NCBI GenBank assembly: GCA_020630355.1
Contig: JAHDBO010000001.1
Location: 1-31,478 of the forward strand
From: Saprospiraceae bacterium
Lineage (GTDB): Bacteria; Bacteroidota; Bacteroidia; Chitinophagales; Saprospiraceae
Length of the DNA: 31,478 nt
Direction of reading: 5' to 3'
A model generated the notes under the pieces. It was given only the letters and a program-made list of their open reading frames with translations. It made no database searches and was not told the DNA's origin. The position numbers were made by a program, and so were the translations under genes. This document shows positions 1-21,310 of the stretch, piece after piece. Every line of letters begins with the position of its first letter. The first letter of the stretch is position 1.

Positions 1-370
1 TCTCTAGGCAGTAGTCAAAGGCATCCAATAACTCTTTTTCACCTCTGATACACTCGCTTAGAATCGCCTCGGCATCATTCTGTGCAATGCTAGCCCTCAA
101 GTTCATCCAGGCTCTGTGTGCTCCCGCCATGATGGTGGTGTCGGCGCCTTCAGAGCTGCCACCAAGTATCAAAATGTCATTTTTAATCTGGTTTCTGAAC
201 CTCGCTCTTTCTAGCGATTTGGCTTCGAAATAACGTTTTAAACTGTTCTCATCAACTAGTTCCATGGCATTTTTATACCCTAGGCGTGCGTCCTCGCAGC
301 GATCCATTAGGTTTCTCAACCCTTTCTTCAATTCGTAATGTCCTGATTGTTTACTTTCTATTGCATTCAT
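1..370 (-). CDS. PA2169-family (DUF2383) ferritin-like four-helix-bundle protein, 3' end runs off the window
   Basis: Not in the ORF track; translated by hand from ATG at 370: MNAIESKQSGHYELKKGLRNLMDRCEDARLGYKNAMELVDENSLKRYFEAKSLERARF...AGAHRAWMNLRASIAQNDAEAILSECIRGEKELLDAFDYCL. The HRAWM and ECIRGE segments are typical of the family. Confidence 0.85.
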   Translation of the reverse strand, partial: MNAIESKQSGHYELKKGLRNLMDRCEDARLGYKNAMELVDENSLKRYFEAKSLERARFRNQIKNDILILGGSSEGADTTIMAGAHRAWMNLRASIAQNDAEAILSECIRGEKELLDAFDYCLE

Positions 371-396
371 AATTTCTATAATTTTTAAATTAATCC

Positions 397-427
397 ACTA
401 AAACAACGGTATTGTCCAACCGTTCTC
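397..427 (-). promoter_or_regulatory. ECF-type island promoter motif, copy 1
   Basis: Minus strand GAGAACGG-N14-TGTTTTAGT, 26 nt upstream of the PA2169-family ATG. Confidence 0.55.
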
Positions 428-697
428 ATTCTGTTTCTTAGTTTGTTTTTTATTTCAAAAGAAGGGAATCCTTTCCCTGCTTTCGCTCTTGGGTGAGGTC
501 TTTTGATTATCCCTATATTTTTTCTTAATCGGTGTGTTTTTCCTTTCATGGCTATCAATTTCCTGATAGTTTTATCTAATATCATGATAATATTCTGTTT
601 TTTGATTTTTGTATTTGTAAAACGGATCAATGCGATATATGTTTGATTTTGATTGAAAATATATTTTATAAAATATTCATTATTAATAATTTGTAAT

Positions 698-728
698 TAA
701 AACATTGAAAGAGCTTGTTCGTTATAGT
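698..728 (+). promoter_or_regulatory. ECF-type island promoter motif, copy 2
   Basis: TAAAACAT-N14-CGTTATAGT, 55 nt upstream of ATG 784. Confidence 0.55.
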
Positions 729-783
729 TAAGGAAAGTGTAGATAAAAAGTGTTTTATAAATTTAATAAAAAAGAAAAAAATA

Positions 784-1311
784 ATGGATACTAGTTATTT
801 AGAAAAAAGTATTGAAGTAGTCAAATCAAGCCCAAGGCAGAGACCAAAAAATAGGCTAAGAACCCGTCGTTTCCCCTTTTATGCCTTCGGTACTTTCGCA
901 GGGGTAGTTGGCGGTTTGGTCATGGTGTTTTATTTGGCGTTTTTAGGTCTTACGGGTTATCATGACGCTATTCATTTTAAGTTTTTTAAGTACTTGTTCC
1001 TGTTTGGTGTCCTTGTTTATGGGCTGTACCGTTACCGGTTGTATTTAAGGAAAGGGGCGTTTTTTAAAAATGGTATATTGTTAGGGATGTACATCTCTTT
1101 TGTGGCAGGTTTGACTCTCTTTGTTGGTAATTTTTTGACACAAGCACTAGCGGGGGACACTATTGTTTTCAGCAAGTTCAATACGATAGCCACAACCTTG
1201 CCAGAGTTTATTGTCATCAATGCAGTAATCTTTTTCGAGGTCATTGTTTTCGGTATGATTTCTACGTTCATTGCTTTACAGTTGATGAAAGATAAGGCTA
1301 GGGCCAAGTAA
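784..1311 (+). CDS. DUF4199-like membrane protein (about 4 TM helices)
   Basis: Four hydrophobic segments and a FKNGILLGMYISFVAG pattern. ATG 784 after an A-rich tract is preferred to the track's TTG 715, which overlaps the promoter motif. Confidence 0.6.
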   Translation: MDTSYLEKSIEVVKSSPRQRPKNRLRTRRFPFYAFGTFAGVVGGLVMVFYLAFLGLTGYHDAIHFKFFKYLFLFGVLVYGLYRYRLYLRKGAFFKNGILLGMYISFVAGLTLFVGNFLTQALAGDTIVFSKFNTIATTLPEFIVINAVIFFEVIVFGMISTFIALQLMKDKARAK

Positions 1312-1342
1312 TAAAAAGTGGCAAAACACTGTTCATGTATAG

Positions 1343-1373
1343 CCCCATTGGATTTATCCAATGGGGTATTTTT
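1343..1373 (+). terminator. Intrinsic terminator
   Basis: CCCCATTGGA-ttta-TCCAATGGGG (10-bp perfect stem) followed by TATTTTT. Confidence 0.65.
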
Positions 1374-1398
1374 ACGAAAAACATCCAAAATCAAAATT

Positions 1399-2496: not shown

Positions 2497-2525
2497 GATT
2501 GCAATGGGCATTTGACAAAAAAATG

Positions 2526-2556
2526 AAGCCCTATCAGGTAATCCAGATAGGGCTTT
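2526..2556. terminator. Bidirectional terminator between convergent genes
   Basis: AAGCCCTATC-N10-GATAGGGCTT. Confidence 0.7.
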
Positions 2557-2580
2557 CAATATAGGGGTATTGGGCTTTTT

Positions 2581-3204
2581 CTACTCTTGCATCACGAATT
2601 TTCCAAAATCAACTTCAAAAGTCTTATTCTTCTTTAGCTGACCGTCCCTTTGCATCTCAAAAAAGGTGCTTTTTACAGTCGTTTTATGCTTTTTTGATAT
2701 TTTCTTCTTTTGAACGATATCTAGCATGCCGTCTTTGTTGACATCTATTACCCATGAATCAAGCTGATAGTTTTTATTTCGTTTGGTATATCTGTAGGAA
2801 AGTTTTTTCAGTTCTTTGAGCTTCTTCCCTTTCATGTCAAATAAGCCCAACGTACTCCCTTTTTTGGTAGGGTAGCGAATGATGTACAAATTACCATTTC
2901 TTGGCCCTTTTATATTAGATACAGCCCTTGGTGCTTTTGCGGTGGTCAGGATGTACCTGTTCAATGGCTTAGGGAGAACGTCAATGTGTTCCTTGGGGAT
3001 AATATTTCCAGCTAAGAAATAATCCTCCGTTATTTTGTCATTGGGTGGAGCGTATATGTGGAAGTTGCCCACGCTTTGGTGTTCAAACAGCGTTTCAAAC
3101 GAATCTTCTCCTTCTCCTGTTTCATCTTCATTCAGTACTGCCTGTTGAGCCAAGATAGACAAGGGCATCAACAGACAAATGAGTACTTTGCTCATCTTTT
3201 TCAT
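2581..3204 (-). CDS. Exported hypothetical protein
   Basis: N-terminal signal peptide (MKKMSKVLICLLMPLSILA) and a DVNKDGMLDIV Ca-binding-like loop; 31 nt downstream of the ECF sigma gene. Confidence 0.7.
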   Translation of the reverse strand: MKKMSKVLICLLMPLSILAQQAVLNEDETGEGEDSFETLFEHQSVGNFHIYAPPNDKITEDYFLAGNIIPKEHIDVLPKPLNRYILTTAKAPRAVSNIKGPRNGNLYIIRYPTKKGSTLGLFDMKGKKLKELKKLSYRYTKRNKNYQLDSWVIDVNKDGMLDIVQKKKISKKHKTTVKSTFFEMQRDGQLKKNKTFEVDFGKFVMQE

Positions 3205-3235
3205 CTTTTTAATTTATTGTGATAAGTAAATCGGA

Positions 3236-3763
3236 CTAGGCTCTGTAATGGCCTAGCGTGTTGCCATATCTGTTTAGCAACATCTTTTGTAATTTTTTCC
3301 TAGCGAAATAGATGCGACTTTTTACCGTTCCGATAGGTACATTGAACATGGATGAGATTTCTTTGTACTGATAACCTTGGTAAAAAAGTGTAAAAAATTC
3401 CTCTTGCTCATCAGGGAGGCAAGCTATCATTTTTTTGATTTCATGCATTAAGATAATGTCGTCAGGGTTATCACCTGATGGTCTTTCTTCTGCTAGGTGT
3501 ATGATGGGTTCAAGAGGTGTTTCGATGTTCCATCTGGTTTTGCTCTTTCGGTAGTGGTTGATGAAAGAGTTGCGCATGATGGTGGTCATCCAAGCTTTGA
3601 AATTGGTGCCTTTCCTGAAGTTGCCTTTGTTCTTGAATCCTCTCATCAAGGTTTCTTGCATAAGATCTTTGGCTTTGTCATGTGATTTGGTCAACCGCAT
3701 TGCAAAACCGTAGAGCAGTGTTTTGATTTCTTCAACTTTTGAATTGAATTCTAATGTGTTCAT
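3236..3763 (-). CDS. ECF RNA polymerase sigma-70 factor, no adjacent anti-sigma
   Basis: Region 2 (AKDLMQETLMRG...FKAWMTTIMRNSFINHYRK) and region 4 (YQYKEISSMFNVPIGTVKSRIYFARKKL); 175 aa. Confidence 0.95.
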   Translation of the reverse strand: MNTLEFNSKVEEIKTLLYGFAMRLTKSHDKAKDLMQETLMRGFKNKGNFRKGTNFKAWMTTIMRNSFINHYRKSKTRWNIETPLEPIIHLAEERPSGDNPDDIILMHEIKKMIACLPDEQEEFFTLFYQGYQYKEISSMFNVPIGTVKSRIYFARKKLQKMLLNRYGNTLGHYRA

Positions 3764-3971
3764 GTGAAAAAAATTTAGCGGTGAATGGGTTTCTTGTTGT
3801 TTAATGTATATTCAATAGTTGTGCCAATCTTTTAATGGTTTGATTATCAATGTTTTACAATGATTTATTGATGATGTTTTTATTTTATTTAATAAAAATT
3901 TATTTTAATAAATAAAATGCAAATTAAATGGATTATCGTCCCATATTTAAAGTGGAATTTTTTTGATTAGA

Positions 3972-4003
3972 TTGAACATCTGATTGTTATGTCCCGTTCT
4001 AGT
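3972..4003 (+). promoter_or_regulatory. ECF-type island promoter motif, copy 3
   Basis: TTGAACAT-N15-CGTTCTAGT, 157 nt upstream of ATG 4161. Confidence 0.7.
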
Positions 4004-4160: not shown

Positions 4161-4460
4161 ATGATTAATACAGAAAAGACTACTTCTCAGATGAAGCAAG
4201 AGTTGGTTTCCATCTTGAAACAACTCAATCAAAAAATAGATACTTATTCAAGGCATTATGCAAAAGGTCAAGCCAATAATGTCAAGAAAATATTAGGTGC
4301 TACCAATAAGCTGATTGGTCATAGGTTTGTGATACGAAATCTTAAGGATAGAATCGAACAGATGAAAAATCTACCAGAAGGATTAAGAGTTGAAATCAAA
4401 CAAGCTTACGAAAATGCAAAGAATGACTTAATGACATCAGATGTAGTCATTAATGCATAA
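4161..4460 (+). CDS. Hypothetical helical protein
   Basis: 99-aa ORF after an A-rich start region, first gene after promoter copy 3. Confidence 0.65.
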   Translation: MINTEKTTSQMKQELVSILKQLNQKIDTYSRHYAKGQANNVKKILGATNKLIGHRFVIRNLKDRIEQMKNLPEGLRVEIKQAYENAKNDLMTSDVVINA

Positions 4461-4585
4461 TACATACATGAAGGGGTGTTTGGACGAGGGCAGCTAGGCA
4501 ATGTATTCGTATAGAAGAGCCGCTTGTAGTGCCTTCCAACGCATAAACCTCAATATTTATTTAACAATTTAAAATTACAAAATCA

Positions 4586-5017
4586 ATGGAACAGAGAAAT
4601 TCAAACAGAACGTGGTTGGCCTTGGGTCTAGGATTGTTGGCAGGTAGTGCTGCTGCCATTTATTTGTCATCTGACGAAGGCAAAAGGGTGAGGAAAAAAG
4701 TGAGCGCGGATGTCAGAAACGCCGCCGAGATTGCTAAAAGAAATATACAGGAACAAGGGACTAAACTAGGCGCTCAGTTGCAGCAAGCAGCGGATAGCGC
4801 ACAGGTGTACATTAAAGACATAGCAGAGTCGACGAAGCAATATACTGAAGAAATTGCTTCTAAAGCAAAGAATGCCATAGCTCAAACTTCTGACCAAGCA
4901 GAGGAAGAAATCGAAGAGAAAGCGGACAGCTTCAAAAAAGGGGTCAATCGTGCAAAGCGTAATATTAACAGGAAGTTGGCAGAGGTTGAAACGGCATCCT
5001 CTAACGGCAAAGCCTAA
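4586..5017 (+). CDS. YtxH-domain membrane-anchored coiled-coil protein
   Basis: N-terminal LALGLGLLAGSAAAIYL then SSDEGKRVRKK and a long A/E/K/Q-rich helix. Confidence 0.85.
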   Translation: MEQRNSNRTWLALGLGLLAGSAAAIYLSSDEGKRVRKKVSADVRNAAEIAKRNIQEQGTKLGAQLQQAADSAQVYIKDIAESTKQYTEEIASKAKNAIAQTSDQAEEEIEEKADSFKKGVNRAKRNINRKLAEVETASSNGKA

Positions 5018-5029
5018 TCATCTTATGCT

Positions 5030-5167
5030 GTGTGAAATATAGGTTAAAAGGTAGAGGTGGCTTGTCCGAGTAGACAAGAACAGGGAGCAGGTTTTTAGGA
5101 AAAAGTTCTTTTGTAGAGGCTTCTGCTAAACACCTCCCTGATACCTCACTTTTGTTATATTTCACGC
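5030..5167 (+). other. Structured intergenic element (multi-stem RNA candidate)
   Basis: GTGTGAAATATAG pairs with TTATATTTCACGC; AAAAG/CTTTT, GAGGT/ACCTC, CTTGTC/GACAAG and CAGGGAG/CTCCCTG stems are nested inside. Confidence 0.45.
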
Positions 5168-5200
5168 AACTAGTATCAATCAAATTAATCCGACATAGTT

Positions 5201-5554
5201 ATGGAAAATCAAAGTGATCGCTTGTTAGAAACAGCAGGTGAAACCATCGCCTACGCTCAAGAGTACTGGATGGAACAAAAGCAGTTGCTCAAGCTGGAAG
5301 TCGCTGAGCGGACAGCAAAAGTAACGTCAAGCTTATTGTCTAGTGTGATTATGGGCTTAGCAGGAAGTATGGTCATTTTACTTTTGTCTATTGCCTTAGC
5401 TTTTGGGCTAGGCACCTACTTTGAGAGTATAGCATTAGGCTTTTTAGCAGTAGCAGGTATTTATCTGTGCTTTTTGGGATTGTTGATATTGTTTAAAAAC
5501 GAATGGGTAACCAATCCGATATTGTCAAGAATAATAGAGGATTTTTTTGATTAA
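5201..5554 (+). CDS. Phage-holin-like superfamily membrane protein (YqjE / Holin-X type)
   Basis: QLLKLEVAER helix followed by two TM segments; usual neighbour of YtxH/DUF883 genes. Confidence 0.8.
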   Translation: MENQSDRLLETAGETIAYAQEYWMEQKQLLKLEVAERTAKVTSSLLSSVIMGLAGSMVILLLSIALAFGLGTYFESIALGFLAVAGIYLCFLGLLILFKNEWVTNPILSRIIEDFFD

Positions 5555-5568
5555 AAAGTTGATGCATT

Positions 5569-6021
5569 ATGAAGAGTGAAATCAGAACATTGGCAGCGCT
5601 TCAGGAAGAAAAGAGGCGTATAAAAATAAAGTTGGGCATTATTGAGGATGAACTTTCTGATAAGGTGGAATCGGGTAAAAACCGTCTCAACCAAGTCAAA
5701 AATTCACTCAAGTGGGTCACACTGATTGGTGGTGTAGCAACTGCTGTAATAGGGGGTGGAGTACTTGCTAGTAAAGAAACCAAAATAGAAAAAGGCAATC
5801 ATCAAGGTTCGGCACGTCCTTCTTTTTGGGATTTGGTCGGACAACTAGCACCATTGGTTTTACCAGCGTTAATTCCTGTGATACAAGAACCATTGCTTAA
5901 CATACTGTCTCAAGAGCAACCTGCTCCTGATAGTGGAATTACAGGTTCAGGAGTACCCATTCAAAAGCAAGAAAAATTATCTGAAAGACATTACAGAGAG
6001 GAGATGCTTGAGTCGTTCTAG
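5569..6021 (+). CDS. Hypothetical membrane-associated protein (YqjK/DUF3618-like position)
   Basis: N-terminal coiled coil (LAALQEEKRRIKIKL), then a hydrophobic segment; third gene of the ytxH-holin-like trio. Confidence 0.6.
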   Translation: MKSEIRTLAALQEEKRRIKIKLGIIEDELSDKVESGKNRLNQVKNSLKWVTLIGGVATAVIGGGVLASKETKIEKGNHQGSARPSFWDLVGQLAPLVLPALIPVIQEPLLNILSQEQPAPDSGITGSGVPIQKQEKLSERHYREEMLESF

Positions 6022-6051
6022 TAGGAGACCTGCCTCTTCAAAAAAAGAAAT

Positions 6052-7017
6052 ATGTTCGCCATGTTATTCATAAATTATTATTTCCAAATCATAAAAAAGG
6101 CCATCTCGTCCTTTGTTGATAATAATTTATTCACCAATGCTGCTGCTTTGGCCTACTATACAGTGTTTTCACTACCGCCTATTTTGCTCATTGTGGTTTA
6201 TGCAACTTCCCTTGTTTATGACCAAAAGGCAGTCAACCAATTTGTTTTTGGCGAATTGGGGGAAATGATAGGCGAAGGGGGAGCGGCTCAGTTGTCCAAT
6301 GCCATAGAGCAATTGGGGATTTATCACCAAGATGTTTGGACGGCAATTTTGAGTATAGGCGTTTTAGTGTTCACGGCAACGACGGTCTTTGTGACCTTAC
6401 AATCTACGCTCAATAAAATATTCAACGTAAAACCAAAACCTGAAGGTTGGGGAATCGTGAAATTTATTAGGGATAGGATGCTTTCAGCTACTTTGTTGTT
6501 GGCGATTGCATTTGTACTCTTAGTATCTTTATCGGTCAATGCCGGTTTATCGGCATTTGCGGATTATCTGAGCAATAGACTCGGGGATATGTCGATAGCC
6601 TTGACACTTATCAGTTCGCTAGTGCTGCCCTTTGTAATTATCACGCTATTGTTTGCGGGACTGTACAAATGGTTGCCCGATGTTCATCTGAAGTGGAAGG
6701 ATGTCTGGACGGGAGCGATTCTGACAGCCGTTTTGTTCATGGTTGGCAAATATATTATCAGCTATTATATAGGGAGCAATCAAACCGCTTCACTGTATGA
6801 CGCTGCGAGCAGTGTTATCGTATTGATGCTTTGGGTTTTTTACGCTTCATTGATTTTCTTTTTTGGAGCGGAATACATTAGGGCCAGGTTGAAACACTTG
6901 GGAGAACCACTACCAGCTTCCGAATATGCGGTAAAAGTGCTGCAGGTTGAAGAGGAAGTCGAAGTACCAGAACACATAAGGGATTTAGAAACTAATAGGC
7001 TACTCAAAATAACGTAG
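6052..7017 (+). CDS. YihY/virulence factor BrkB family membrane protein
   Basis: AAALAYYTVFSLPP, YKWLPD and YDAASSVIVLMLWVFYASLIFFFGAE motifs. Confidence 0.92.
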   Translation: MFAMLFINYYFQIIKKAISSFVDNNLFTNAAALAYYTVFSLPPILLIVVYATSLVYDQKAVNQFVFGELGEMIGEGGAAQLSNAIEQLGIYHQDVWTAILSIGVLVFTATTVFVTLQSTLNKIFNVKPKPEGWGIVKFIRDRMLSATLLLAIAFVLLVSLSVNAGLSAFADYLSNRLGDMSIALTLISSLVLPFVIITLLFAGLYKWLPDVHLKWKDVWTGAILTAVLFMVGKYIISYYIGSNQTASLYDAASSVIVLMLWVFYASLIFFFGAEYIRARLKHLGEPLPASEYAVKVLQVEEEVEVPEHIRDLETNRLLKIT

Positions 7018-7076
7018 TTAGGTACGTAGTATAGTACTTACTAAGTCTTTATATTTAAATTTTAAAAAAAAGAAAA

Positions 7077-7490
7077 ATGAGAAAAATATTATCAATCATA
7101 TTCATCCTATTTAGTATTACAATGTTTTCTATTACGGCTTGTAATACACAAACACAAACAGAAGCAGAAAAGGCGAAAGAAGAGATTAATGAGGCGGGCG
7201 AGGCTATTTCGGATGCATGGGAAGCAGAAAGAGCCGAATTAGAAGCTGACATGAAACAAGCTCAAATTAGTCTCAATGCTCGTATCGACGAACTGCAGAG
7301 AGACTTGGAGGTGGCTACTGCTGAAGCGAAAGGAGAAATCCAAGAAGAATTGGACAAGTTGGAAACACAGCGTCGCAAAGCTAGCACACAACTTAAACGC
7401 TTTGGTGATGTTGTAGATGATGGTTGGAATGACTTTAAAAATGAGGTTGAGCTAACGATCACTGGCATCGAGCGCTCTATTGAAAAATAA
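7077..7490 (+). CDS. Coiled-coil lipoprotein
   Basis: Lipobox ITA-C at residue 22, then acidic heptad-rich helices. Confidence 0.75.
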   Translation: MRKILSIIFILFSITMFSITACNTQTQTEAEKAKEEINEAGEAISDAWEAERAELEADMKQAQISLNARIDELQRDLEVATAEAKGEIQEELDKLETQRRKASTQLKRFGDVVDDGWNDFKNEVELTITGIERSIEK

Positions 7491-7507
7491 TAACGATTAG
7501 TGGATTC

Positions 7508-7544
7508 AACCAGTCTTACCTATTAAGGTAAGGCTGGTTTTTTT
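7508..7544 (+). terminator. Intrinsic terminator
   Basis: AACCAGTCTTACC-tattaa-GGTAAGGCTGGTT plus a T-tract. Confidence 0.75.
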
Positions 7545-7557
7545 ATAAAATGGATTT

Positions 7558-8424
7558 ATGGAATTTATTGAAGATATTAAAAATAACATTACCAGTTATT
7601 ACGATGACCTGGTAGCGGTTGCCCCCAAGTTGGTTCTAGGGGTCGTACTGTTCTTAGTACTGGTTTTTATCGGTGCTCAATTATCGAAACTTACCCAGAA
7701 TCGGCTGAAATCTAGAATGGATGATCCTTTGCTCGCAAAATTTATCGCTTCGGTAGTAAAAGGAGTAGTAGGGCTCTTGGCACTTTTGGTGTTCTTAAAG
7801 ACCGTTGGTCTAGGGGCTGCGGCGGCAGGACTGTTAGGGACAGCAGGGGTAGGGGCTTTCGTGATAGGATTTGCGTTTAAAGATATAGGAGAACATTTTT
7901 TGGCCGGTATTATTATGGCGTTCAATCGTCCGTTCAGAGTAGGTGATGTTGTAGAATTGGATGGAGTGAAGGGTAAAGTGGTGACCTTGAACTTGCGCAA
8001 TACACACATCAAAAGTTTTGATGGCAAAGATATTTATATACCAAATGGGAACATCATCAAGAACCCATTGGTCAATTATACGATTGATGGATTTATGCGT
8101 TATAGTTTGGTGGTGGGTTTGGACTATGGCTCTGATATTGATAAAGCCGCAGAAATCATGCTCAATACAACCCGTGAGATTGATGGGGTGCTATTAATTG
8201 ATGGGAGATCACCAAGTGTTTCGGTCGAAAGCTTAGGTACCAGCACCGTAAATCTTGAAATATTATACTGGCTAGATACTTTCGATACGAGTTTCCCCGC
8301 TGTGAAAGTAAAGACCAGATTGGCGAAAGACGTACTTGACGCTCTAGAAAATGCAGGGTTCTATATGCCAAGTGACATTTTGGAAATTAAAAACTATAAG
8401 GATCAAGCAGCCTTGGTTTCCTAG
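7558..8424 (+). CDS. mscS: Small-conductance mechanosensitive channel family protein
   Basis: GFAFKDIGEHFLAGIIMAFNRPFRVGD and G.V..LNLRNT.I..FDG..IYIPN motifs. Confidence 0.93.
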   Translation: MEFIEDIKNNITSYYDDLVAVAPKLVLGVVLFLVLVFIGAQLSKLTQNRLKSRMDDPLLAKFIASVVKGVVGLLALLVFLKTVGLGAAAAGLLGTAGVGAFVIGFAFKDIGEHFLAGIIMAFNRPFRVGDVVELDGVKGKVVTLNLRNTHIKSFDGKDIYIPNGNIIKNPLVNYTIDGFMRYSLVVGLDYGSDIDKAAEIMLNTTREIDGVLLIDGRSPSVSVESLGTSTVNLEILYWLDTFDTSFPAVKVKTRLAKDVLDALENAGFYMPSDILEIKNYKDQAALVS

Positions 8425-8439
8425 TCTTCAATCATTGAT

Positions 8440-9783
8440 ATGAAAATAATTATTGCAGGAGCTGGCGCCGTCGGTCTGCATTTGGCAGAACTTTTGTCTA
8501 TCGAATTGCACGATTTGGTGTTGATAGATACGGACGAGCACCTACTGGATCAGATACGCCAAAGGATGGATATTATGGTTGTTCACGGTGACGCTGCCTC
8601 CCCGACTGTACTGATGGAGGCAGGTGTGAAACAATCTGATTTATGTATTGCTGCAACCACGTCGGAAAAAACAAATCTCCTAGTGGCAATAATGGCGAAA
8701 CAACTTGGAAGCCACAAAACAATAGCCCGTATCAACAACCCAGAATATTTGACTTGGACACAACTCCAACAGTTTGAATCATTGGGTATTGCGGCACTGA
8801 TTTCTCCCGAGCTACTAGCGGCCAAAGAAATATACGCCTTGCTTAGAAAAGCGGCCTATTTTGATTGGACAGCTTTCGAGTCGGGTCGAATTCTTGTGCT
8901 TGGTTTTGATATTAAAGAAGATTCCGATTTGATTGGACGCTCACTCAGGGAAATATCGGGACGGTTCAATAAATTGCCTTTTATAGTGGTGGCCATTCTC
9001 CGAAATCAAGAAACTATTATTCCAAACGGTAGCACGACTTTAGAGTCAGGAGACTATATCTATGTTTCCACCAACAAGAAAGAAGAAAAAAAAGTAAAAG
9101 AGACTTTTGCCATACCAGAAAGGAAAATCAGGCAGGTCATGGTAATAGGGAACACGAGTTTGTCTATACAAACAGCCCAACTATTAGAACAGGATTTTAA
9201 GGTGAAATTGTTACTTAGCGATGGGGTGCTGGCAGAACAAGCGAGCATTAAATGCCCTGCTGCGTCAACGTTGCTAGTGGAGTCCTTTGAAGCAAAATAT
9301 CTCAAAGAGGAAGGGTTGGGAAATATGGATGCCTTTATTGCAATATCCAATAATCTAGAAGCCAACATTGTTTTAGGTCTGATAGCGAAACAATTAGGTG
9401 TTTACAAGGTCATTGCTAAGGTCAATAATGAGCAATACTATGGTTTTTCTAGAGGTTTAGGTATTGATTCTATCGTCAATAAAAAACGCTTGGCAGCCAA
9501 TGAGATTTTCAGGCATATCCGTAGGGGCAATGTCGCCTCAGTCGTGAATCTACACGATGTAGAAGCGGAACTGATAGAGTTTGTAGTAGCAGAAGGTAGT
9601 CGGCTGGATGGCTTGAGTCTGGAACAAGCTGGCTTTCCCAAACATTCCATTGTAACAGGAGTGATTAGAGGGGATAAGGGGATCATTCCTAGGGGAGATT
9701 TTGTATTCCAAAAAGAAGATAAAATCGTGACGCTAGCTGCGAACGATAGTATATTGTCTGTTGAAGATCTCTGTTGTCAATGA
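8440..9783 (+). CDS. trkA: Trk system potassium transporter, NAD-binding subunit
   Basis: MKIIIAGAGAVG Rossmann motif; two RCK_N/RCK_C pairs; 447 aa. Confidence 0.95.
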   Translation: MKIIIAGAGAVGLHLAELLSIELHDLVLIDTDEHLLDQIRQRMDIMVVHGDAASPTVLMEAGVKQSDLCIAATTSEKTNLLVAIMAKQLGSHKTIARINNPEYLTWTQLQQFESLGIAALISPELLAAKEIYALLRKAAYFDWTAFESGRILVLGFDIKEDSDLIGRSLREISGRFNKLPFIVVAILRNQETIIPNGSTTLESGDYIYVSTNKKEEKKVKETFAIPERKIRQVMVIGNTSLSIQTAQLLEQDFKVKLLLSDGVLAEQASIKCPAASTLLVESFEAKYLKEEGLGNMDAFIAISNNLEANIVLGLIAKQLGVYKVIAKVNNEQYYGFSRGLGIDSIVNKKRLAANEIFRHIRRGNVASVVNLHDVEAELIEFVVAEGSRLDGLSLEQAGFPKHSIVTGVIRGDKGIIPRGDFVFQKEDKIVTLAANDSILSVEDLCCQ

Positions 9784-11243
9784 TAAACTATCAAATCATA
9801 GCACGCACAAACGGAATGGTGTTGTCTATTTTGGGGCTACTGATGATGCTCCCCTTGTTCGTCTCTTATTACTATGATTCGAGCGGCGATAATATGTTGT
9901 TTTTGTCGGCTGCTATAACATTTTTATCTGGAGAGACTTTGCGTTATTATGGCAAGTCGAGCACTGCTACCTCCATAGGAAGAAAAGAGGGGTATATCAT
10001 TGTTGTTTTGGCTTGGGTGAGCATGAGTTTGTTTAGTATACTCCCTTATTATCTAGGAGGATATATATCTGATTTTACAAAAGCTTTCTTTGAAAGCGTC
10101 TCTGGTTTGACAACTACAGGAGCAACGGTTATCAAAGATATAGAGTCCCTGCCCAAAGGGATTCTTTTTTGGCGAAGCCTCACACAATGGATTGGCGGCA
10201 TGGGTATTATCGTACTGACTGTTGCCATTTTTCCTTTATTCGGTCTAAGTGGGGTAGAATTGTACAGGGCGGAAGTGCCGGGGCCATCCAAAGAAAGGTT
10301 GCACCCTAGGGTGCTGGATACAGCACGCATGCTTTGGGGGGTGTATATCGGCTTAACCGTATTGTTGATTCTACTTCTCTTTTGTTTTGGAATGAGTTTT
10401 TATGATGCTATTAATCACGGCTTCACGACAATGGCAACAGGTGGCTTTTCTACCAAGAATGCTAGTATAGCCGCTTTTTCAGATAGGGGGATTCAATATA
10501 TATTGCTGCTGTTCATGTTTTTGGCAGGTAGTAACTATGCGATTGTCTTTTATGCATTGAAGCGAGAATGGAAAAAAGTATACAGGCATGAGGAGTTCGT
10601 TACGTACACTACCATAATGCTTCTTTTATCCCTATCGGTTGGTGCTGGAATTTACTTTTATCAGGATGTTGCTCTGGAACGTGCTTTTCGAGATGGTGCC
10701 TTCCAAGTGGTTTCGATAGTCACAACGACAGGTTTTGTATCTGCGGATTATACCCAATTTTTCCCTTCTAGTAGTGTATTGTTTTTCTTCCTTTTATTCA
10801 CGGGAGCCTGCTCTGGCTCTACAAGCGGGGGTGTCAAAATTATACGGCATTTAGTCTTGTTTAAACACATCAAAACAGTGTTTAGTAAGCTTGTGAATCC
10901 GAGATTAGTCGTTCCTTTACAGCTCCACGATAAAGCAATCAAAAAGGGTTATTTGCAACATATAACAGGTTTTATCGTCACTTATGGCTTCCTCTTTTTG
11001 ATAGGTTGTCTTTTAATGTCCTTTATTTTGTCAGGTACAGAAGATGTGTTTGAAACGGCGCTTACTGCTGTAGCGACCTGCTTAGGAAATGTTGGGCCTG
11101 GTCTGGGGGGCGTAGGGCCTACGGATAATTTCTCCGAACTGCCTCATACTGGATACTGGCTGCTTATTTTTTATATGTTACTAGGGCGGCTAGAGTTGTT
11201 TTCTGTTCTAGTATTGTTTTTCCCTTATTTTTGGAAGCAGTAG
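9780..11243 (+). CDS. trkH: Trk system potassium uptake membrane protein
   Basis: FESVSGLTTTG, TMATGGFS, VSIVTTTGF and GNVGPG pore loops; ATG 9780 overlaps the trkA stop (ATGA). Confidence 0.95.
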   Translation: MINYQIIARTNGMVLSILGLLMMLPLFVSYYYDSSGDNMLFLSAAITFLSGETLRYYGKSSTATSIGRKEGYIIVVLAWVSMSLFSILPYYLGGYISDFTKAFFESVSGLTTTGATVIKDIESLPKGILFWRSLTQWIGGMGIIVLTVAIFPLFGLSGVELYRAEVPGPSKERLHPRVLDTARMLWGVYIGLTVLLILLLFCFGMSFYDAINHGFTTMATGGFSTKNASIAAFSDRGIQYILLLFMFLAGSNYAIVFYALKREWKKVYRHEEFVTYTTIMLLLSLSVGAGIYFYQDVALERAFRDGAFQVVSIVTTTGFVSADYTQFFPSSSVLFFFLLFTGACSGSTSGGVKIIRHLVLFKHIKTVFSKLVNPRLVVPLQLHDKAIKKGYLQHITGFIVTYGFLFLIGCLLMSFILSGTEDVFETALTAVATCLGNVGPGLGGVGPTDNFSELPHTGYWLLIFYMLLGRLELFSVLVLFFPYFWKQ

Positions 11244-11370
11244 CAATTGTTTATGTGTTTTCCCTGTTTTTAATGTTAAAACATAAACAATTCGATGGTT
11301 TTTTAAACTATTCCTCATATTTTTAGTTACTTTACGTACCAGAGCCTATTATCTTGTTACATAGATATTC

Positions 11371-12666
11371 ATGTATTTCACATCCAACCCCAGTGGGCTC
11401 GGAAACATCACTAGTTTAGCTGATGAATCCAATCTAGTCATTATATTCTCGGATAAGTCGGGTAAAATTATTTGGAGCAACACCCAGATACACCATTTCT
11501 TTGGTATCTCATTAGTAGATGTAGTAGGCTATCCTATATTTCATTTCCTGCCAGAGCTTTCCTTGATGGATCTTTTAAAGAGCAACAAACAAGGTAGTGT
11601 TATATGTGTCAGCAGTCAATTGTTAGATGCTCATAAAATGCTCCATGATATTTATTTGTCTATCGCGCCAGTAAGCGTAAATGATAAGTTGGGTTACGGC
11701 TTTATAATCGGAATTGATGACAAAGCTAGAAATGTCCATACTTCTATAAGCAATGAATTTTTGAAAACCGTTCCCCGACAAAAATCTGATAAAGTTTGGT
11801 ATAATAAAGGGTTGAAGCCAAAAGGGGTTACACCGATAGGGCTCATCAATAGAGAAATCGTAAGCTATGGCATCTCTTACGGGAATATTTTACATCAAAT
11901 TGCGGACTATTGCGCTTTAAAAGAACAACATATTTTGATTTTTGGTGAAAAAGGTACGGGTAAAAAGCTTATATGTAAAACAATGCACCAATGCATGCAA
12001 GCAGAGGGAGAGTATCCATTATTGTTAGACTGCAACCTTCGCACCAACGAAGATAACGAACAAATGCTTTTTGGTGTACAGAGAGGCAGCACTATACAAG
12101 AAGGCCTTCTAGATAAAGTGGATAAAGGAGCCCTTTATTTGTGTAATATTGATTCTTTGGATATCCAGCTACAGGACAAATTAGTAGTAGCCTTGATGGA
12201 TAAACAATTTTATAGGTACAAATCAAAAGTATCTATACCTATAAATTTCAGGTTAGTGGCAACCTGTGAAGCATCTCCTAACAGCCTGTTAAGAAAGGGT
12301 AAGCTACACCCTGCTCTAGTCCGCTTGTTTAGGGAAACAACTATTTGTAATATCCCTCTTCGGGAACGTCGAGAAGACATCCCCTTACTTATTCAGTTTT
12401 TTATAAGACAGTATGGTATGAAATTATTTTTGAAAAAGGACTCTCTTTTTTCAGAAAAAGAATTGGAACGCATAATATCCTATGATTATCCAGAAAACAT
12501 ATCAGAGCTCGAACGGATAACACGACAGGCTATTAGTGATTTTCCAATCGAGCTAATGCATCCTATGGCGGTATTATTGAAGGAGTTGATAGATAAAAAC
12601 AAAACATCCGATGATGCGAGCACTTTGAGTGGCAATATAAGTTCTGACCTAGACAGAGCAGTATGA
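11371..12666 (+). CDS. PAS + sigma-54-activator-like AAA+ domain protein, catalytically degenerate, no evident HTH
   Basis: PAS-like N-terminus; Walker A GEKGTGK, PLRERREDIPLL retained; Walker B reads LYLCNID; GAFTGA absent. Confidence 0.8.
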   Translation: MYFTSNPSGLGNITSLADESNLVIIFSDKSGKIIWSNTQIHHFFGISLVDVVGYPIFHFLPELSLMDLLKSNKQGSVICVSSQLLDAHKMLHDIYLSIAPVSVNDKLGYGFIIGIDDKARNVHTSISNEFLKTVPRQKSDKVWYNKGLKPKGVTPIGLINREIVSYGISYGNILHQIADYCALKEQHILIFGEKGTGKKLICKTMHQCMQAEGEYPLLLDCNLRTNEDNEQMLFGVQRGSTIQEGLLDKVDKGALYLCNIDSLDIQLQDKLVVALMDKQFYRYKSKVSIPINFRLVATCEASPNSLLRKGKLHPALVRLFRETTICNIPLRERREDIPLLIQFFIRQYGMKLFLKKDSLFSEKELERIISYDYPENISELERITRQAISDFPIELMHPMAVLLKELIDKNKTSDDASTLSGNISSDLDRAV

Positions 12667-12923
12667 AATCAAAAATTTCCGAATGGGTTATTTATGGTTC
12701 CCCAACCGTTACCTTTTTGTTATAGACGGTAATATCTTTGTGGGGTACTCTAATTGGAGTATTGGGCTCTGTGGCGGCCCTCTTTGTAGTGTGCCGCCAC
12801 TATCTCAAATGCTGGGGATTAAGAGCTCAATTGGGTTGGTTCTTTGTAAGGGCCAACCTTTTTTTGTTGAACTTTTTTTGTTGGATAATCGAACAAACCA
12901 GGGCTTCAATCATTTTAGTGTAA
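12663..12923 (+). pseudogene. Possible small membrane protein interrupted by an in-frame TAG (alternative: intact ORF 12683-12931)
   Basis: ATG 12663 overlaps the upstream stop; MKSKISEWVIYGSPTVTFLL-TAG(12723-12725)-TVISLWGTLIGVLGSVAALFVVC... Confidence 0.3.
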
Positions 12924-12927
12924 ATGA

Positions 12928-13989
12928 ATGATGGTAGTTAAACCAAAAATAAACAATGCAGTAGGGGTGGTCAAAGCTTTGGGCGAAGCACTGGGACAAC
13001 AAACCCAAATCACAAACAAAGTATGTGAAATCGTTGTTCCAAAATCGAATGGAAGTGGTTTTGTCAGAGCATTTGAGTTTCCAATGGGGCTATCACTTTT
13101 AATGGTTGATATCCATCTCAGAGATAGTATTACTATTAATATCACAGACGCTTCTATCAAACCACTCTTATTTGTTTTCAATATAAAAGGTGATTTTATC
13201 CATCATCTTGATAACAATCATATCCAGTATCGGCTACCAATAGAGTCTTCTTCTATTGTGTCGAATGTCAAAGGGAGGAGTCAATTCATATATCTAAACG
13301 GCGGCGGTCAGCACCGGTTTATCATTGCTATGATTGACCGTTACCGCTATTTAGGCAAAATAGAATCGACCCTTGAAAACCTACCAGAGATATTAGTGTC
13401 TACATTCAAAGATATTGAAAGCCGGGTCTCATTTTTCTATATGAATGCTTACAATATTTCTTGTACGGAGTGCATTAAAAAAATTTATAATAAAAGAATA
13501 CCGGGCTTGGTCAACTATACCTACAGCGAGGCCAAGACGCTAGAACTAGTGGCTTGTCTGATAGACCAATACTGTGAAGAGGTGGAGGGTAGGAACCTGG
13601 TTTTAAATTATAAACCTTCAGACTTAGAAGCTATCAAAAAGGCAAAACAATATATACAAGACAACCTTTCCGTCACAACAACGATTCCAGAGCTCGCAAA
13701 AATTGTTGGATTGAATCAACAAAAACTCAAAAAAGGATTTAAAGATTTATACCAAAAAACAATCAGGCAATTTCTTCGAGAAGAACGCTTGGAAAGGGCA
13801 AGTGTGCTCATACTGAGAAATGAAATGAATATAGGAGCAGTGGCAGAAGAAGTAGGGTATCAGAATAAGAGCCACTTTGCCAAACGATTCAAGGAAAGAT
13901 ATGGCGTACTTCCGAAAGACTTTCTCAGTTCTTCACGAGATAAATGGCAGAAAAATGCCGAAACGCATGAACAGAGTCATGTTCTATAA
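12928..13989 (+). CDS. AraC family transcriptional regulator
   Basis: C-terminal double HTH: TIPELAKIVGLNQQKLKKGFK...IGAVAEEVGYQNKSHFAKRFKERYGVLP. Confidence 0.93.
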   Translation: MMVVKPKINNAVGVVKALGEALGQQTQITNKVCEIVVPKSNGSGFVRAFEFPMGLSLLMVDIHLRDSITINITDASIKPLLFVFNIKGDFIHHLDNNHIQYRLPIESSSIVSNVKGRSQFIYLNGGGQHRFIIAMIDRYRYLGKIESTLENLPEILVSTFKDIESRVSFFYMNAYNISCTECIKKIYNKRIPGLVNYTYSEAKTLELVACLIDQYCEEVEGRNLVLNYKPSDLEAIKKAKQYIQDNLSVTTTIPELAKIVGLNQQKLKKGFKDLYQKTIRQFLREERLERASVLILRNEMNIGAVAEEVGYQNKSHFAKRFKERYGVLPKDFLSSSRDKWQKNAETHEQSHVL

Positions 13990-14080: not shown

Positions 14081-14086
14081 AGGTAG

Positions 14087-14262: not shown

Positions 14263-14293
14263 TTGAACATCAGAGGGGAATGACTGTTTTAGT
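14263..14293 (+). promoter_or_regulatory. ECF-type island promoter motif, copy 4
   Basis: TTGAACAT-N14-TGTTTTAGT, 35 nt upstream of ATG 14329. Confidence 0.65.
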
Positions 14294-15786: not shown

Positions 15787-15817
15787 TCGAACATATAACA
15801 GCCCTAGCCGTTGTAGT
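15787..15817 (+). promoter_or_regulatory. ECF-type island promoter motif, copy 5
   Basis: TCGAACAT-N14-CGTTGTAGT, 43 nt upstream of ATG 15861. Confidence 0.7.
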
Positions 15818-16187: not shown

Positions 16188-16522
16188 ACACACAAAAATT
16201 ATACACTATGATTTACACTTCGAAAAGGAATATAATAGATGGAATTAATCGGGCCAGGGCCAAGGGGTACAAAAAATCTTTTCTTTTCAACGGTAGCCAT
16301 TTAGTGGACAAAGACAGCCTTAATGTTTATGACGCATGGGATTGCGAAATAGTTGAAGAAGAGACATTTGTAGAGGGGCCCTCTTTTGCATTATTTTGGT
16401 TTCGTTGTAAGGATGGCATAAAAGGATATTTAACAAAGCCTCTTAAAGGAGAGCTGAATGATAAGCTGTCCCAATTTCTGAAACGGGTTCAAAACAAGGA
16501 ACAAAGTCTAAATTCGTACTGA
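16184..16522 (+). CDS. Small conserved-looking hypothetical protein
   Basis: IDGINRARAKGYKKSF...EIVEEETFVEG...GIKGYL recalls a Bacteroidota small-protein family often mislabelled as PRPP synthetase (recollection, unverified); TTG start overlaps the HPF-like stop; alternative ATG 16208. Confidence 0.65.
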   Translation: MNTQKLYTMIYTSKRNIIDGINRARAKGYKKSFLFNGSHLVDKDSLNVYDAWDCEIVEEETFVEGPSFALFWFRCKDGIKGYLTKPLKGELNDKLSQFLKRVQNKEQSLNSY

Positions 16523-16541
16523 GTCTTTGGCTCAAACGTAC

Positions 16542-16579: not shown

Positions 16580-16587
16580 CATTGGAA

Positions 16588-16618
16588 TCGAACATGTACC
16601 CATACTTTCCGTTTTAGT
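16588..16618 (+). promoter_or_regulatory. ECF-type island promoter motif, copy 6
   Basis: TCGAACAT-N14-CGTTTTAGT, 139 nt upstream of ATG 16758, just after a terminator. Confidence 0.7.
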
Positions 16619-17915: not shown

Positions 17916-17944
17916 TTGATTAAAAAAAACAGAAATACAAAAAT

Positions 17945-18871: not shown

Positions 18872-19235
18872 TATAGGTATCAGACTTTTTTACAAAGCAA
18901 TTTCACTAAATTGAAAAATAATAATTTCCGTTTGAACGCCGAATTTTTTGAGTCCGTAGCTCGGTTATGCGCCAAAAAAACGAAGTCCTTAAAAGGAAAA
19001 ACTCAATGCTCACTTTAGTGACTATATGAACTAGTCTATTAGACATTATTCTATTTTCGATTTTGGTGAAAACAGTAGGCTATAAAAGAATGATTTTCAA
19101 TCTAATACCTAAAGACTAATATCTGATTTTAGAATAAAAGCTATTATTTGCTAAGTCCCTTATCTAATAACTATAAAGCTACAAAATCTTGTTTTTCAAT
19201 GAAGCATATAAAAATAAGATCTAAACCTAATATCA

Positions 19236-19709
19236 ATGAAGTTCTCTAACCTTTTCGGGTGGTCGCTTAAGGCGACCACTTTTATTGGTATAATAGGAAT
19301 TGCCCTATTGGCGATAGGAATTGAATGGTATGCCTTTATAAAGATTGCCAATATCTTTGAACTGATTTTCTCTGCAGCATTAGATGGGGATGTGGTCGTC
19401 AAAAAAGTATTGCATACGCTTGATATGATTTTGATAGGGATTACCCTTTTTACAATCGCTATCATGCTTTATGAGCTTTTTATAGATAAGATAAATGGTT
19501 TGCCAGCTTGGTTGGTTATATCTAGCATGGACGAGCTAAAGGGGATTATCGTCAAGATGATTATTGTGGTATTGGGGATTTCCTTTACAGGAAAAATTAT
19601 CACGTGGGATGGACAGGCTGATTTGATGGGATATGGTGTCGCTCAGGCACTTGTGATAGTTTCGCTCAGTTATTTTCTAGTTGTCAAAGCAAAGAAAGAA
19701 GAAGCTTAA
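19236..19709 (+). CDS. YqhA family (UPF0114) membrane protein
   Basis: VLHTLDMILIGITLFTIAIMLYELFI and PAWLVISSMDELK motifs; 4 TM. Confidence 0.88.
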   Translation: MKFSNLFGWSLKATTFIGIIGIALLAIGIEWYAFIKIANIFELIFSAALDGDVVVKKVLHTLDMILIGITLFTIAIMLYELFIDKINGLPAWLVISSMDELKGIIVKMIIVVLGISFTGKIITWDGQADLMGYGVAQALVIVSLSYFLVVKAKKEEA

Positions 19710-20041
19710 GCAGCTTCCATGTTAAAAGTGTCTTCTATGAGTTCAAGAATCTCTGATTCGGCAACCAGGCCGCTTATTTCGTTTATCAAATCCCCTTTCT
19801 TGAAGAACAATAAGGTCGGGACACTTTGTATGCCCATTCTCTGAACCAATACAGGATGGCTGTCTTTGTCAATTGCAAAGAAGCTAATATTACGTGGTTT
19901 ACTATCTGAAATATTATCCAACATTCTGCGCATAATATGGGATTTGCCCGACCAACGGGTAAAAACACAAACGACACATTGCAGTTGTTGTTGTACAATG
20001 AGTTTGTCGAATAATGCAGGATTTAAAAGTAGTTTTTCCAT
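19706..20041 (-). CDS. Thioredoxin-fold protein lacking the CXXC active site
   Basis: FTRWSGKSHIM in place of F.A.WCGPC..M; GIQSVPTLLFFKKG cis-Pro segment retained. Confidence 0.85.
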   Translation of the reverse strand: MEKLLLNPALFDKLIVQQQLQCVVCVFTRWSGKSHIMRRMLDNISDSKPRNISFFAIDKDSHPVLVQRMGIQSVPTLLFFKKGDLINEISGLVAESEILELIEDTFNMEAA

Positions 20042-20119
20042 TTTCAGTTCTTCCGCTGTAAATTATAAACCCATACCATCTAGGAATTTTAACTTGTTTC
20101 TAAATGCACTTTGAGCATT

Positions 20120-20150
20120 ACTAAAACTCTGTAGGTTATGAGATGTTCAA
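20120..20150 (-). promoter_or_regulatory. ECF-type island promoter motif, copy 7
   Basis: Minus strand TTGAACAT-N14-AGTTTTAGT, 78 nt upstream of the thioredoxin-like ATG. Confidence 0.65.
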
Positions 20151-20172
20151 TGGACCTCTGAGAATGATGAAA

Positions 20173-20204
20173 TTGAACATACCTGGTTTTCAAGCCGTTC
20201 TAGT
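20173..20204 (+). promoter_or_regulatory. ECF-type island promoter motif, copy 8
   Basis: TTGAACAT-N15-CGTTCTAGT, 19 nt upstream of ATG 20224. Confidence 0.7.
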
Positions 20205-20223
20205 GGTAAAATAAAGTAAAAAG

Positions 20224-20925
20224 ATGAAAAAAATAATCATAATGTTTTTGTTAACTGTTCCGGTCATCGTTTGGTCGAATAGTATATTTGAAATGGAAAA
20301 AGGAGAATGTAACCATGAAGGGGATATTGTGTCTTCCTTTAATGTCAGATTTGAGATGGACGTGGCAAAAGCAAAATCTTATTGGAACGATTTTATGGAA
20401 GATGAGAATGACAACGATATTAGTGGATATGGCTTATTCAGAAAAAAAGACCTTTTGGAAACAGAAATGACGCTGATGCCAGAGCTGAGTAATGAACCGC
20501 TTAAATTATTTGCCCACTTCCGACAACTTGGCGAGTATGCTGTGCTCCATCTTTATGCAAAGGACAAATCGGGTACTTTCATTGCCGAAGATAGCCATCC
20601 CAATACCTTCAAAAACATCCAGCGGTTGGCACAACGGTTTGTCAAATATACAGTGCCGTTGCACTGTGAAAATCTGCTTGATGAGGCACAGGATAAACTG
20701 AAGGATTACCAAAAGCAAAGAGAACGAAAACAGGATGACATCGAAGATATGGAAGAAGATATAACCGAGCATCAGGAAGAAATCCAAGACCTGAAAAAAG
20801 AAATCCAACAAGGGAAAATCTCCTTAGAAGGTATCGACCAAAATATAGAAAGTGCCAAAGCCGATTTAGAAGCGAAGGAATCGCTGTATGATTCCATCAA
20901 GAAAGAACTAGCGGAGATTAAATAA
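20224..20925 (+). CDS. Exported protein with C-terminal acidic coiled coil
   Basis: MKKIIIMFLLTVPVIVWS signal peptide; about 85-aa heptad-rich C-terminus. Confidence 0.8.
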   Translation: MKKIIIMFLLTVPVIVWSNSIFEMEKGECNHEGDIVSSFNVRFEMDVAKAKSYWNDFMEDENDNDISGYGLFRKKDLLETEMTLMPELSNEPLKLFAHFRQLGEYAVLHLYAKDKSGTFIAEDSHPNTFKNIQRLAQRFVKYTVPLHCENLLDEAQDKLKDYQKQRERKQDDIEDMEEDITEHQEEIQDLKKEIQQGKISLEGIDQNIESAKADLEAKESLYDSIKKELAEIK

Positions 20926-21106
20926 GCAATACGAGTTAATTGAGTGGGCAGATTTCAGGGGAAACAGCGGTAAAAGACTACTTTAAACGCCCCATCAATT
21001 GGCTTGTATTTACTTGATTAAAAGGCCCAAAAAAACATCAGTAATTGGCAGTAATTCCATTTGCTGATCTTACAAATCATATATTAAATTAAGCAAAAAA
21101 ATTAAA

Positions 21107-21310
21107 ATGAAAAATCTAAGCAAACTCAGCGTTCAATTGGTAACCTTATTAGTGTTACAAGTCGTATTTGTAAACCAAATCTCTGCACAACTGATAGATG
21201 TAGATGTCAATGAAGGAGGTGGGGAACTTTGGTATCAGAATCCTTACGTAGTTGTCATTGGCGTACTCGTAGTCCTTTTGGTTGCAGTTTTGGCTATGAG
21301 GAAAAAATAA
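21107..21310 (+). CDS. 67-aa signal-peptide + single-TM microprotein
   Basis: Signal peptide to ISA-Q, DVDVNEGGGELWY linker, TM, RKK tail; followed by a strong terminator. Confidence 0.75.
   Translation: MKNLSKLSVQLVTLLVLQVVFVNQISAQLIDVDVNEGGGELWYQNPYVVVIGVLVVLLVAVLAMRKK

Follow-up and report, generated by a model that had tools for sequence, protein, structure and literature searches.

A block of stress-type genes on a contig of a Saprospiraceae bacterium raises the question of whether a single alternative sigma factor switches them on together. We analysed 31,478 nt of this contig (GenBank assembly GCA_020630355.1, JAHDBO010000001.1, positions 1 to 31,478 of the forward strand), referred to below as the window; the genes in question occupy its first 21.3 kb, the island. 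An earlier description made from the letters alone (the sequence-only reading) had noticed eight copies of a two-box motif before island genes and had proposed that an extracytoplasmic function (ECF) sigma factor without an anti-sigma factor, encoded at 3236-3763, reads them and runs a self-contained general stress response. Our follow-up, by computation only, largely supports the regulon interpretation: the motif is real and statistically secure, and we consider it probable that it is an ECF promoter read by the island sigma factor, with or without a paralogue encoded on another contig (C23), under an input that passes through sigma-54 and a PAS-domain enhancer-binding protein.

A sharp intergenic motif directed at stress genes

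The source assembly is a 2.31-Mb, 408-contig metagenome-assembled genome (MAG) of 64% completeness, derived from an algal metagenome (three DNA runs, one metagenome), and the window is its contig C229. Motif scans were controlled with the reversed pattern, and the core pattern was also compared with shuffles. The consensus TYGAACAT-N15/16-GTTNTAGT occurred in eight exact copies in the whole MAG versus none for the reversed control, which answers the doubt whether it might be as common in random DNA, and in five copies versus two when one mismatch was allowed. Six of the eight exact copies lay in the window, on 1.4% of the assembly, where the core GAACAT-N13-16-GTTNTA matched six times against 0.14 expected in shuffles. 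All eight exact copies and four of the five one-mismatch copies were intergenic, and every exact copy was oriented toward an open reading frame (ORF) that starts 8-157 nt downstream, so that the gene-directed placement first noticed in the window held genome-wide. Spacer and flank sequences were unrelated from copy to copy, and the copies are therefore not repeated DNA. Directional, two-boxed and of fixed spacing, the motif in its form TYGAACAT-N14/15-CGTT equals GAAC-N16/17-CGTT, the usual ECF promoter form, and its sequence properties support the view that T(T/C)GAACAT-N14/15-(C/T)GTTNTAGT behaves as an ECF-type −35/−10 promoter.

The copies in the window and the genes they face are as follows.

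397..427, minus strand: degenerate copy GAGAACGG-N14-TGTTTTAGT, 26 nt before a DUF2383 gene (2-370, minus strand)
698..728, plus strand: degenerate copy TAAAACAT-N14-CGTTATAGT, 56 nt before a 175-aa gene (785-1311)
3972..4003, plus strand: exact copy, divergent from the sigma factor gene, 157 nt before a long stress operon
12889..12919, plus strand: possible weak internal copy with two mismatches, 8 nt before the ATG of an AraC gene, without other support
14263..14293, plus strand: exact copy 35 nt before a TPR gene (14329-15558), immediately preceded by a terminator
15787..15817, plus strand: exact copy, followed by two coupled genes (15861-16522) for a weakly HPF-like 108-aa protein and a 112-aa protein
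16588..16618, plus strand: exact copy, 139 nt before a baeRF gene (16758-17915), which is followed by an MscS gene (17945-18871)
20120..20150, minus strand: exact copy, 78 nt before a thioredoxin gene (19706-20041, minus strand)
20173..20204, plus strand: exact copy, 19 nt before a 233-aa coiled-coil gene (20224-20925)

Six of the eight copies first reported thus stand as exact matches at their original coordinates, while those at 397 and 698 have a −35 box that departs from the consensus; the spacer of the former forms a hairpin. The possible weak site at 12889-12919(+) is new, as is the sigma-54-type element described below. The copies at 20120(−) and 20173(+) lie back to back as an inverted pair. 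Terminators had been said to precede several copies, and we located, besides the one directly before 14263, a strong one 3′ of the TPR gene and upstream of the 15787 copy.

The boundary drawn at 21.3 kb by the sequence-only reading was also confirmed. To its right the window held no motif copy even at up to two mismatches, and the genes for glutaminyl-tRNA synthetase (GlnRS), GcvT and a disulphide isomerase carried TAnnTTTG at −35 to −67, an element that was found within 140 nt of the start of no island gene. Lacking this housekeeping element, the island genes should therefore be silent without the sigma factor that reads the motif. The regulon is not self-contained, as had been claimed, in that seven further sites (exact and one-mismatch) lay on five other contigs of the MAG, among them:

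contig C98: exact copy, 8 nt before a 284-aa Usp-like gene
contig C138: exact copy before a 126-aa gene of unknown function
contig C138: one-mismatch copy before a Dps gene
contig C28: one-mismatch copy before an alpha/beta hydrolase gene
contig C23: one-mismatch copy following a pseudo-enhancer-binding-protein gene
contig C237: one-mismatch copy at the contig end

A broader pattern, AAC-N16/17-YGTT, was enriched in the intergenic DNA of the same genome, with 107 and 90 sites versus ~55 at other spacings, that is, about twice the frequency and ~85 sites above background. The bulk of this class is (A)AAC..TGTT and is distinct from the strict motif, in which AAC is preceded by G and GTT by C, with a TAGT extension besides. 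We thus see in the strict motif a sharper and lineage-specific version of a promoter theme that runs through the phylum. As a separate observation, the excess of (A)AAC..TGTT suggests a second, larger alternative-sigma regulon in this genome, resembling that of the PM2 promoters taken up in the last section.

The motif co-occurs with a subfamily of ECF sigma factors

The candidate reader and the gene downstream of it are encoded on the minus strand.

3236..3763, minus strand: 175-aa ECF sigma factor limited to regions 2 and 4, candidate motif reader (Pfam, TIGR02937)
2581..3204, minus strand: 207-aa signal-peptide protein, downstream of the sigma factor gene (translation)

The sigma factor matched Pfam Sigma70_r2 (59.2 bits) and r4_2 (51.7 bits), and scored 90.9 bits against TIGR02937 (sigma70-ECF), whose cut-off of 42.9 places it in the ECF family. 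The best-scoring model was NF058625 (GFO_1088 / PG0214 ECF family), which at 94.9 bits stayed under its curated cut-off of 130 and does not claim the protein as a member; we ruled out the group ECF257 ("AAA ATPases and ABC transporters") because it is a Firmicutes group. The protein belongs to a Saprospiraceae subfamily of 174-176 aa and 50-63% identity that has hundreds of members in a large protein collection; all named relatives are from Saprospiraceae or Lewinellaceae, and 400 sampled Bacteroidota genomes contained no homologue at E<=1e-45.

To compare the distribution of sigma factor and motif, we assembled a subfamily set of 11 distinct contigs (200 kb) that encode 50-59%-identical sigma factors, and a comparison set of 1.66 Mb from loci around a ~41%-identical family, 61 of them long. 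GAACA[TA]-N14/15-YGTTNT[AG]G occurred 12 times in the subfamily set, nine times in intergenic DNA, with a control of 0, and not once in the comparison set. The sites in the subfamily set stand before genes for MscS (three loci), Usp-like proteins (two), Dps (two), superoxide dismutase (SOD), Hsp20, thioredoxin and holin-like proteins. The motif is kept before orthologous genes, namely before Usp-like genes on MAG contig C98 and at loci L206 and L214, before MscS genes in the window and at L206, L217 and L218, and before Dps genes on MAG contig C138 and at L214 and L220. Around the sigma factor genes of the 11 contigs we found MscS, thioredoxin, DUF2383, baeRF, Usp-like, Dps, holin-like and YihY genes as well as AI-2E, TrkAH, AraC, Hsp20 and SOD genes, and none of this island cargo appeared in the ~41% family, for which 61 long loci were compared. 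The genome of L206 encodes three paralogues of the sigma factor and holds five strict motif copies, four of them intergenic. These observations support the view that sigma subfamily and motif travel together across genomes, a correlation still, on which the assignment of the motif to this subfamily chiefly rests.

The scan of relatives that the sequence-only reading had called for was thus borne out in the subfamily contigs, and not in 40 family- and order-level relatives with 39-52%-identical sigma factors, where the strict motif had 0-2 copies, at control level. Sigma relatives of ~40-47% identity from the genome and from metagenome contigs were considered as parts of the same system and rejected, having neither common cargo nor the motif. 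DNA-level synteny with 25 relatives was absent beyond the trkH and mscS regions, and a same-genus genome lacked the island. A 43%-identical sigma factor at locus L016 (genome G004) has GTGAACAG-N14-TCGTTGAGG 59 nt before its own gene, and the same locus carries CTGAACAT-N14-CTGTTCAAA before a YtxH-like gene; judged by this locus, more distantly related sigma factors may control their own genes and recognise a −10 box that lacks TAGT.

A sigma factor without a conserved partner

That the sigma factor lacks an anti-sigma factor was upheld by the comparison. No conserved anti-sigma factor or other partner was found beside it, and the adjoining genes differed in all 11 related contexts. The neighbouring 207-aa signal-peptide protein had no Pfam or NCBIfam match and no homologue in these contexts; judged by its sequence, it is not anti-sigma-like, and it is not conserved beside the relatives. 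Small ORFs 5′ of some relatives' sigma factor genes were examined as NepR-like anti-sigma factors and discarded, those of 47-62 aa being barely alike, and ORFs of 137-141 aa in the same position, homologous to one another, had no homologue in this genome. Because no anti-sigma factor exists, the activity of the sigma factor would be set by its amount.

The genome encodes a paralogue on contig C23 that is 62% identical and has near-identical region 2 and region 4 sequences, because of which the reader is not pinned to the 3236-3763 protein alone. The original assignment of the motif to this protein was therefore strengthened by the co-occurrence and at the same time weakened by a paralogue that could read the same sites. 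In favour of the assignment, the second ECF gene of the window (29732-30289) is associated with a different motif, GCAACC-N16-CGTGTA, present twice, at 28260-28287(−) and 30301-30328(−); one copy stands before this gene, and one after a downstream 485-aa gene, facing no ORF.

A sigma-54-type element and PAS enhancer-binding proteins on the proposed input side

Upstream of the sigma factor gene, on its own strand, there was no TAnnTTTG within 200 nt and no ECF motif, and a different promoter-like element was present.

3812..3826, minus strand: sigma-54-type −24/−12 element TGGCAC-N5-TTGA, with TGGCAC starting ~60 nt upstream of the sigma ATG

The corresponding element of the C23 paralogue is TGGCAC-N5-TTCT. 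In the subfamily, TTGGCA(C/T)-N5-TTG(A/G), or a form with a T-rich −12, stood before 13 of 14 sigma factor genes, that of the island among them, or their leader ORF versus ~0.05 expected; TGGCAC and the spacing are conserved in these 13, and the −12 reads TTGA, TTGG or T-rich, never TTGC. In this genome TGGCAY-N5-TTGA was intergenic in 6 of 27 cases against a background of 6%, and TTGC forms were never intergenic. The MAG contains rpoN, and its HtpG (C84 ~5188(+)) and ClpB (C251 ~2582(+)) genes have TGGCAY-N5/6-TTG(A/T) elements 61 and 120 nt upstream, in agreement with the sigma-54 chaperone regulon mapped experimentally in Flavobacterium psychrophilum (PMC9723704). We note in passing that the sigma-54 −12 box in this lineage seems to be TTGA or TTGT rather than TTGC.

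In 6 of the 11 contexts the gene divergent from the sigma factor encodes a multi-PAS enhancer-binding protein that has GAFTGA and HTH_8, and such a gene, for a product of 712 aa, also stands beside the C23 paralogue. The only relative of this activator in the window is a GAFTGA-less paralogue of 431 aa at 11371-12666, inside the long operon. It forms, with the product of L003:4241-5455, a pair of 34%-identical PAS-AAA+ proteins that have kept Walker A and lost GAFTGA and the HTH; the L003 gene directly follows the intact enhancer-binding protein gene on C23. That the GAFTGA-less paralogue modulates the activator is speculation. Taken together, the 13 of 14 conserved elements and the divergent PAS activators in 6 of 11 contexts suggest a cascade like that of HrpL, a comparison to which we return below. 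On two related contigs (L215:3320-6673 and L218:3516-6808), the genes near the sigma factor encode not the PAS enhancer-binding protein but a heme oxygenase, a receiver protein and a histidine kinase of the bacteriophytochrome type, which hints at light input in some lineages.

Proposed circuit and alternative explanations

In the circuit that we propose, the sigma factor gene would be transcribed from the TGGCAC-N5-TTGA promoter, opened by a PAS enhancer-binding protein that is encoded beside the paralogue here and beside the sigma factor in most relatives. The anti-sigma-less sigma factor, acting together or interchangeably with its 62%-identical C23 paralogue, would then direct the RNA polymerase core to at least 13 units in the 64%-complete genome, six to eight of them in the island, with transcription predicted to start at the motif copies in response to a presumed stress signal. 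The expected output is osmotic, oxidative and dormancy-type protection, provided by two MscS channels, TrkAH, YtxH-, YqjE- and sll1863-like membrane stress proteins, YihY, DUF2383, thioredoxin, Dps, Usp-like and baeRF proteins and a weakly HPF-like protein. Extending this circuit, we tentatively envisage, with rather more doubt than confidence, a three-tier cascade in which a multi-PAS activator and sigma-54 switch on the anti-sigma-less ECF factor and this in turn ~15 high-information promoters. Such a cascade would serve a Saprospiraceae clade as its switch for general stress and dormancy, with the pseudo-enhancer-binding protein from the ECF-driven operon feeding back on the activator. If true, the cascade would tie the Bacteroidota sigma-54 proteotoxic-stress regulon to an ECF general-stress regulon, and would identify, for one lineage, both what reads PM2-type stress promoters and what feeds into them.

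Several findings weigh against the proposed circuit. Two of the copies, 397 and 698, are weak; no motif copy precedes the sigma factor gene, so that the usual internal proof by autoregulation is lacking; and the relatives G020 and G023, with ~50%-identical sigma factors, showed no enrichment of the strict motif. The sigma factor of the window has no adjoining enhancer-binding protein gene, and the canonical GC at −12 is missing (TTGA at the sigma factor gene, TTCT at the paralogue), for which reason the sigma-54 step remains presumptive. Because the assembly is a MAG of limited completeness, regulon size and contig membership are uncertain. Moreover, at least 19 ECF genes are present in the assembly, which leads to the most serious alternative: the motif would be an ECF promoter read by the C23 paralogue alone or by another of at least 17 ECF factors, for example one of the ECF114/SigH type that reads PM2-like promoters, and the island sigma factor would have some other regulon. 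The paralogue has in its favour, besides its near-identical regions 2 and 4, its place next to the intact enhancer-binding protein; another reader would fit the wealth of ECF genes, the broad AAC-N16/17-YGTT class in the same genome and the missing autoregulatory copy before 3236-3763. It fits poorly with the joint presence of motif and sigma subfamily on 11 unrelated contigs and their joint absence around the 41% family, with the letters that set the strict motif apart from the broad class, and with the copy that diverges from the sigma factor gene itself, and we regard this alternative as unlikely.

Far less probable is an explanation that makes the motif an operator, bound by a regulator such as the AraC protein of the island, rather than a core promoter. 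An AraC gene does recur among the island members, and the 20120 and 20173 copies form an inverted pair, but every copy is oriented to a gene at promoter distance, the boxes show no symmetry, keep a constant spacing of 14/15 nt and have the ECF form GAAC/CGTT, and the target genes have no other recognisable promoter. As for an effect of assembly or chance, or a promoter cassette duplicated without common regulation, the fragmented state of the MAG is what might invite it; the control count of 0 for the exact motif, the unrelated spacers and flanks and the preservation of the motif before orthologous genes in other assemblies leave it scarcely credible.

Gene content of the island

Beyond the genes listed with their motif copies, the island contains the following features.

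1318-2496: AI-2E family transporter gene, after the 785-1311 gene
4161..13989, plus strand: co-directional gene row behind the 3972 promoter (Pfam and NCBIfam)
7508-7539, plus strand: strong terminator with a 14-bp stem, inside the long row, 18 nt before MscS-TrkA-TrkH
21107-21310: 67-aa ORF, after the coiled-coil gene

The long row begins with genes for a 99-aa protein, YtxH-like and holin-X/YqjE-like proteins, a 150-aa protein, YihY/BrkB and an sll1863-family stress protein, and continues with MscS, TrkA, TrkH, the PAS pseudo-enhancer-binding protein (11371-12666), an 82-aa protein and the AraC regulator. The terminator at 7508-7539 may split this row, and since MscS-TrkA-TrkH have no recognisable promoter of their own after it, their transcription needs read-through or an unseen promoter. 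Other window cargo recognised with Pfam and NCBIfam comprises a UPF0114 gene and several unknown proteins. The stress-type cargo claimed for the island is supported as being of the general-stress kind, with the exception of the weak HPF-like assignment, whose 19.2 bits fall short of the cut-off of 23.7. Between the MscS and UPF0114 genes, at 19029-19150, lies an element of ~110 nt with at least ten further copies of ~90% identity on other contigs, which looks like a dispersed repeat of the miniature inverted-repeat transposable element (MITE) or repetitive extragenic palindromic (REP) kind.

Comparison with known stress and virulence sigma circuits

To our knowledge, Bacteroidota have neither RpoS nor SigB, and the description of a general stress response in the phylum is at an early stage, resting on PM2 and SigH-1 from a single gut species. 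In Bacteroides thetaiotaomicron, PM2 promoters were found in 2020 to mark stationary-phase and oxidative-stress genes (PMC7366714), and a 2025 study linked PM2-like promoters to the anti-sigma-less ECF114 factors SigH-1 (BT1197) and SigR-1 and called SigH-1 a stress relay (PMC12596196). With these regulons published, the earlier statement that no such system was described is outdated. The PM2/SigH-1/SigR-1 system and the SigH (ECF114) of Porphyromonas gingivalis belong to the same phylum as the locus studied here and likewise use ECF factors without anti-sigma factors that are controlled through their own transcription. PM2 is, like the motif here, a non-canonical −30/−10 promoter before stationary-phase and oxidative-stress genes, including thioredoxins, a likeness by description and not letter by letter, and the ECF114 trait of having no conserved anti-sigma factor or partner in the neighbourhood is seen in our 11 contexts. 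The differences lie in the motif, which with ~15 fixed positions and its TAGT extension is far richer in information; in the number of units marked, ~13-15 here versus ~75-80 by PM2; in the sigma factor, which unlike that of the PM2/SigH-1 system belongs to a narrow Saprospiraceae subfamily; and in the input, which for SigH-1 is Cur and (p)ppGpp and here apparently sigma-54 with a PAS enhancer-binding protein.

The motif had also invited a comparison with EcfG (ECF15) of Alphaproteobacteria, which shares the GAAC-N16/17-CGTT form, a broad stress regulon (Dps, Usp, MscS, small membrane stress proteins) and paralogous sigma factors. The likeness is functional and does not amount to membership, and the kinship that the sequence-only reading had hinted at does not hold. 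The promoter has the GGAAC-N16/17-CGTT form, which shows no membership because it is common to many ECF groups; the phylum is another one; and control would be by synthesis and not by sequestration. The 64%-complete genome gave no PF18557 match for NepR, and the sigma factor gene is flanked by a gene for a secreted protein and by the stress operon that diverges from it. PF22233, for PhyR, matched no more than two ORFs, both of ECF size (210 and 187 aa). The system is not EcfG/ECF15.

In design, the proposed circuit parallels the HrpR/HrpS-sigma-54-HrpL (ECF32) cascade of Pseudomonas syringae, in which enhancer-binding proteins open a sigma-54 promoter that drives the gene of an anti-sigma-less ECF factor (PMC8999054, PMC5263251). 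HrpL also reads one conserved promoter box before a clustered regulon, and paired paralogous enhancer-binding proteins are present in both systems. The proteins and the phylum are unrelated, however, and the output is stress protection here and type III secretion there; the sensor here is multi-PAS, the second paralogue lacks GAFTGA, Walker B and the HTH, the −12 is non-canonical, and the system is known from sequence alone. Seen against these systems, the locus is an unusually clean computational case from a free-living marine lineage, in which a sharp promoter and a clustered regulon come with a candidate reader and a plausible sigma-54/PAS signal route, and the circuit is therefore directly testable. 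The motif could also serve to flag genes for stress and dormancy when uncultured Saprospiraceae are annotated, among them baeRF, HPF-like ribosome factors and small proteins of unknown function.

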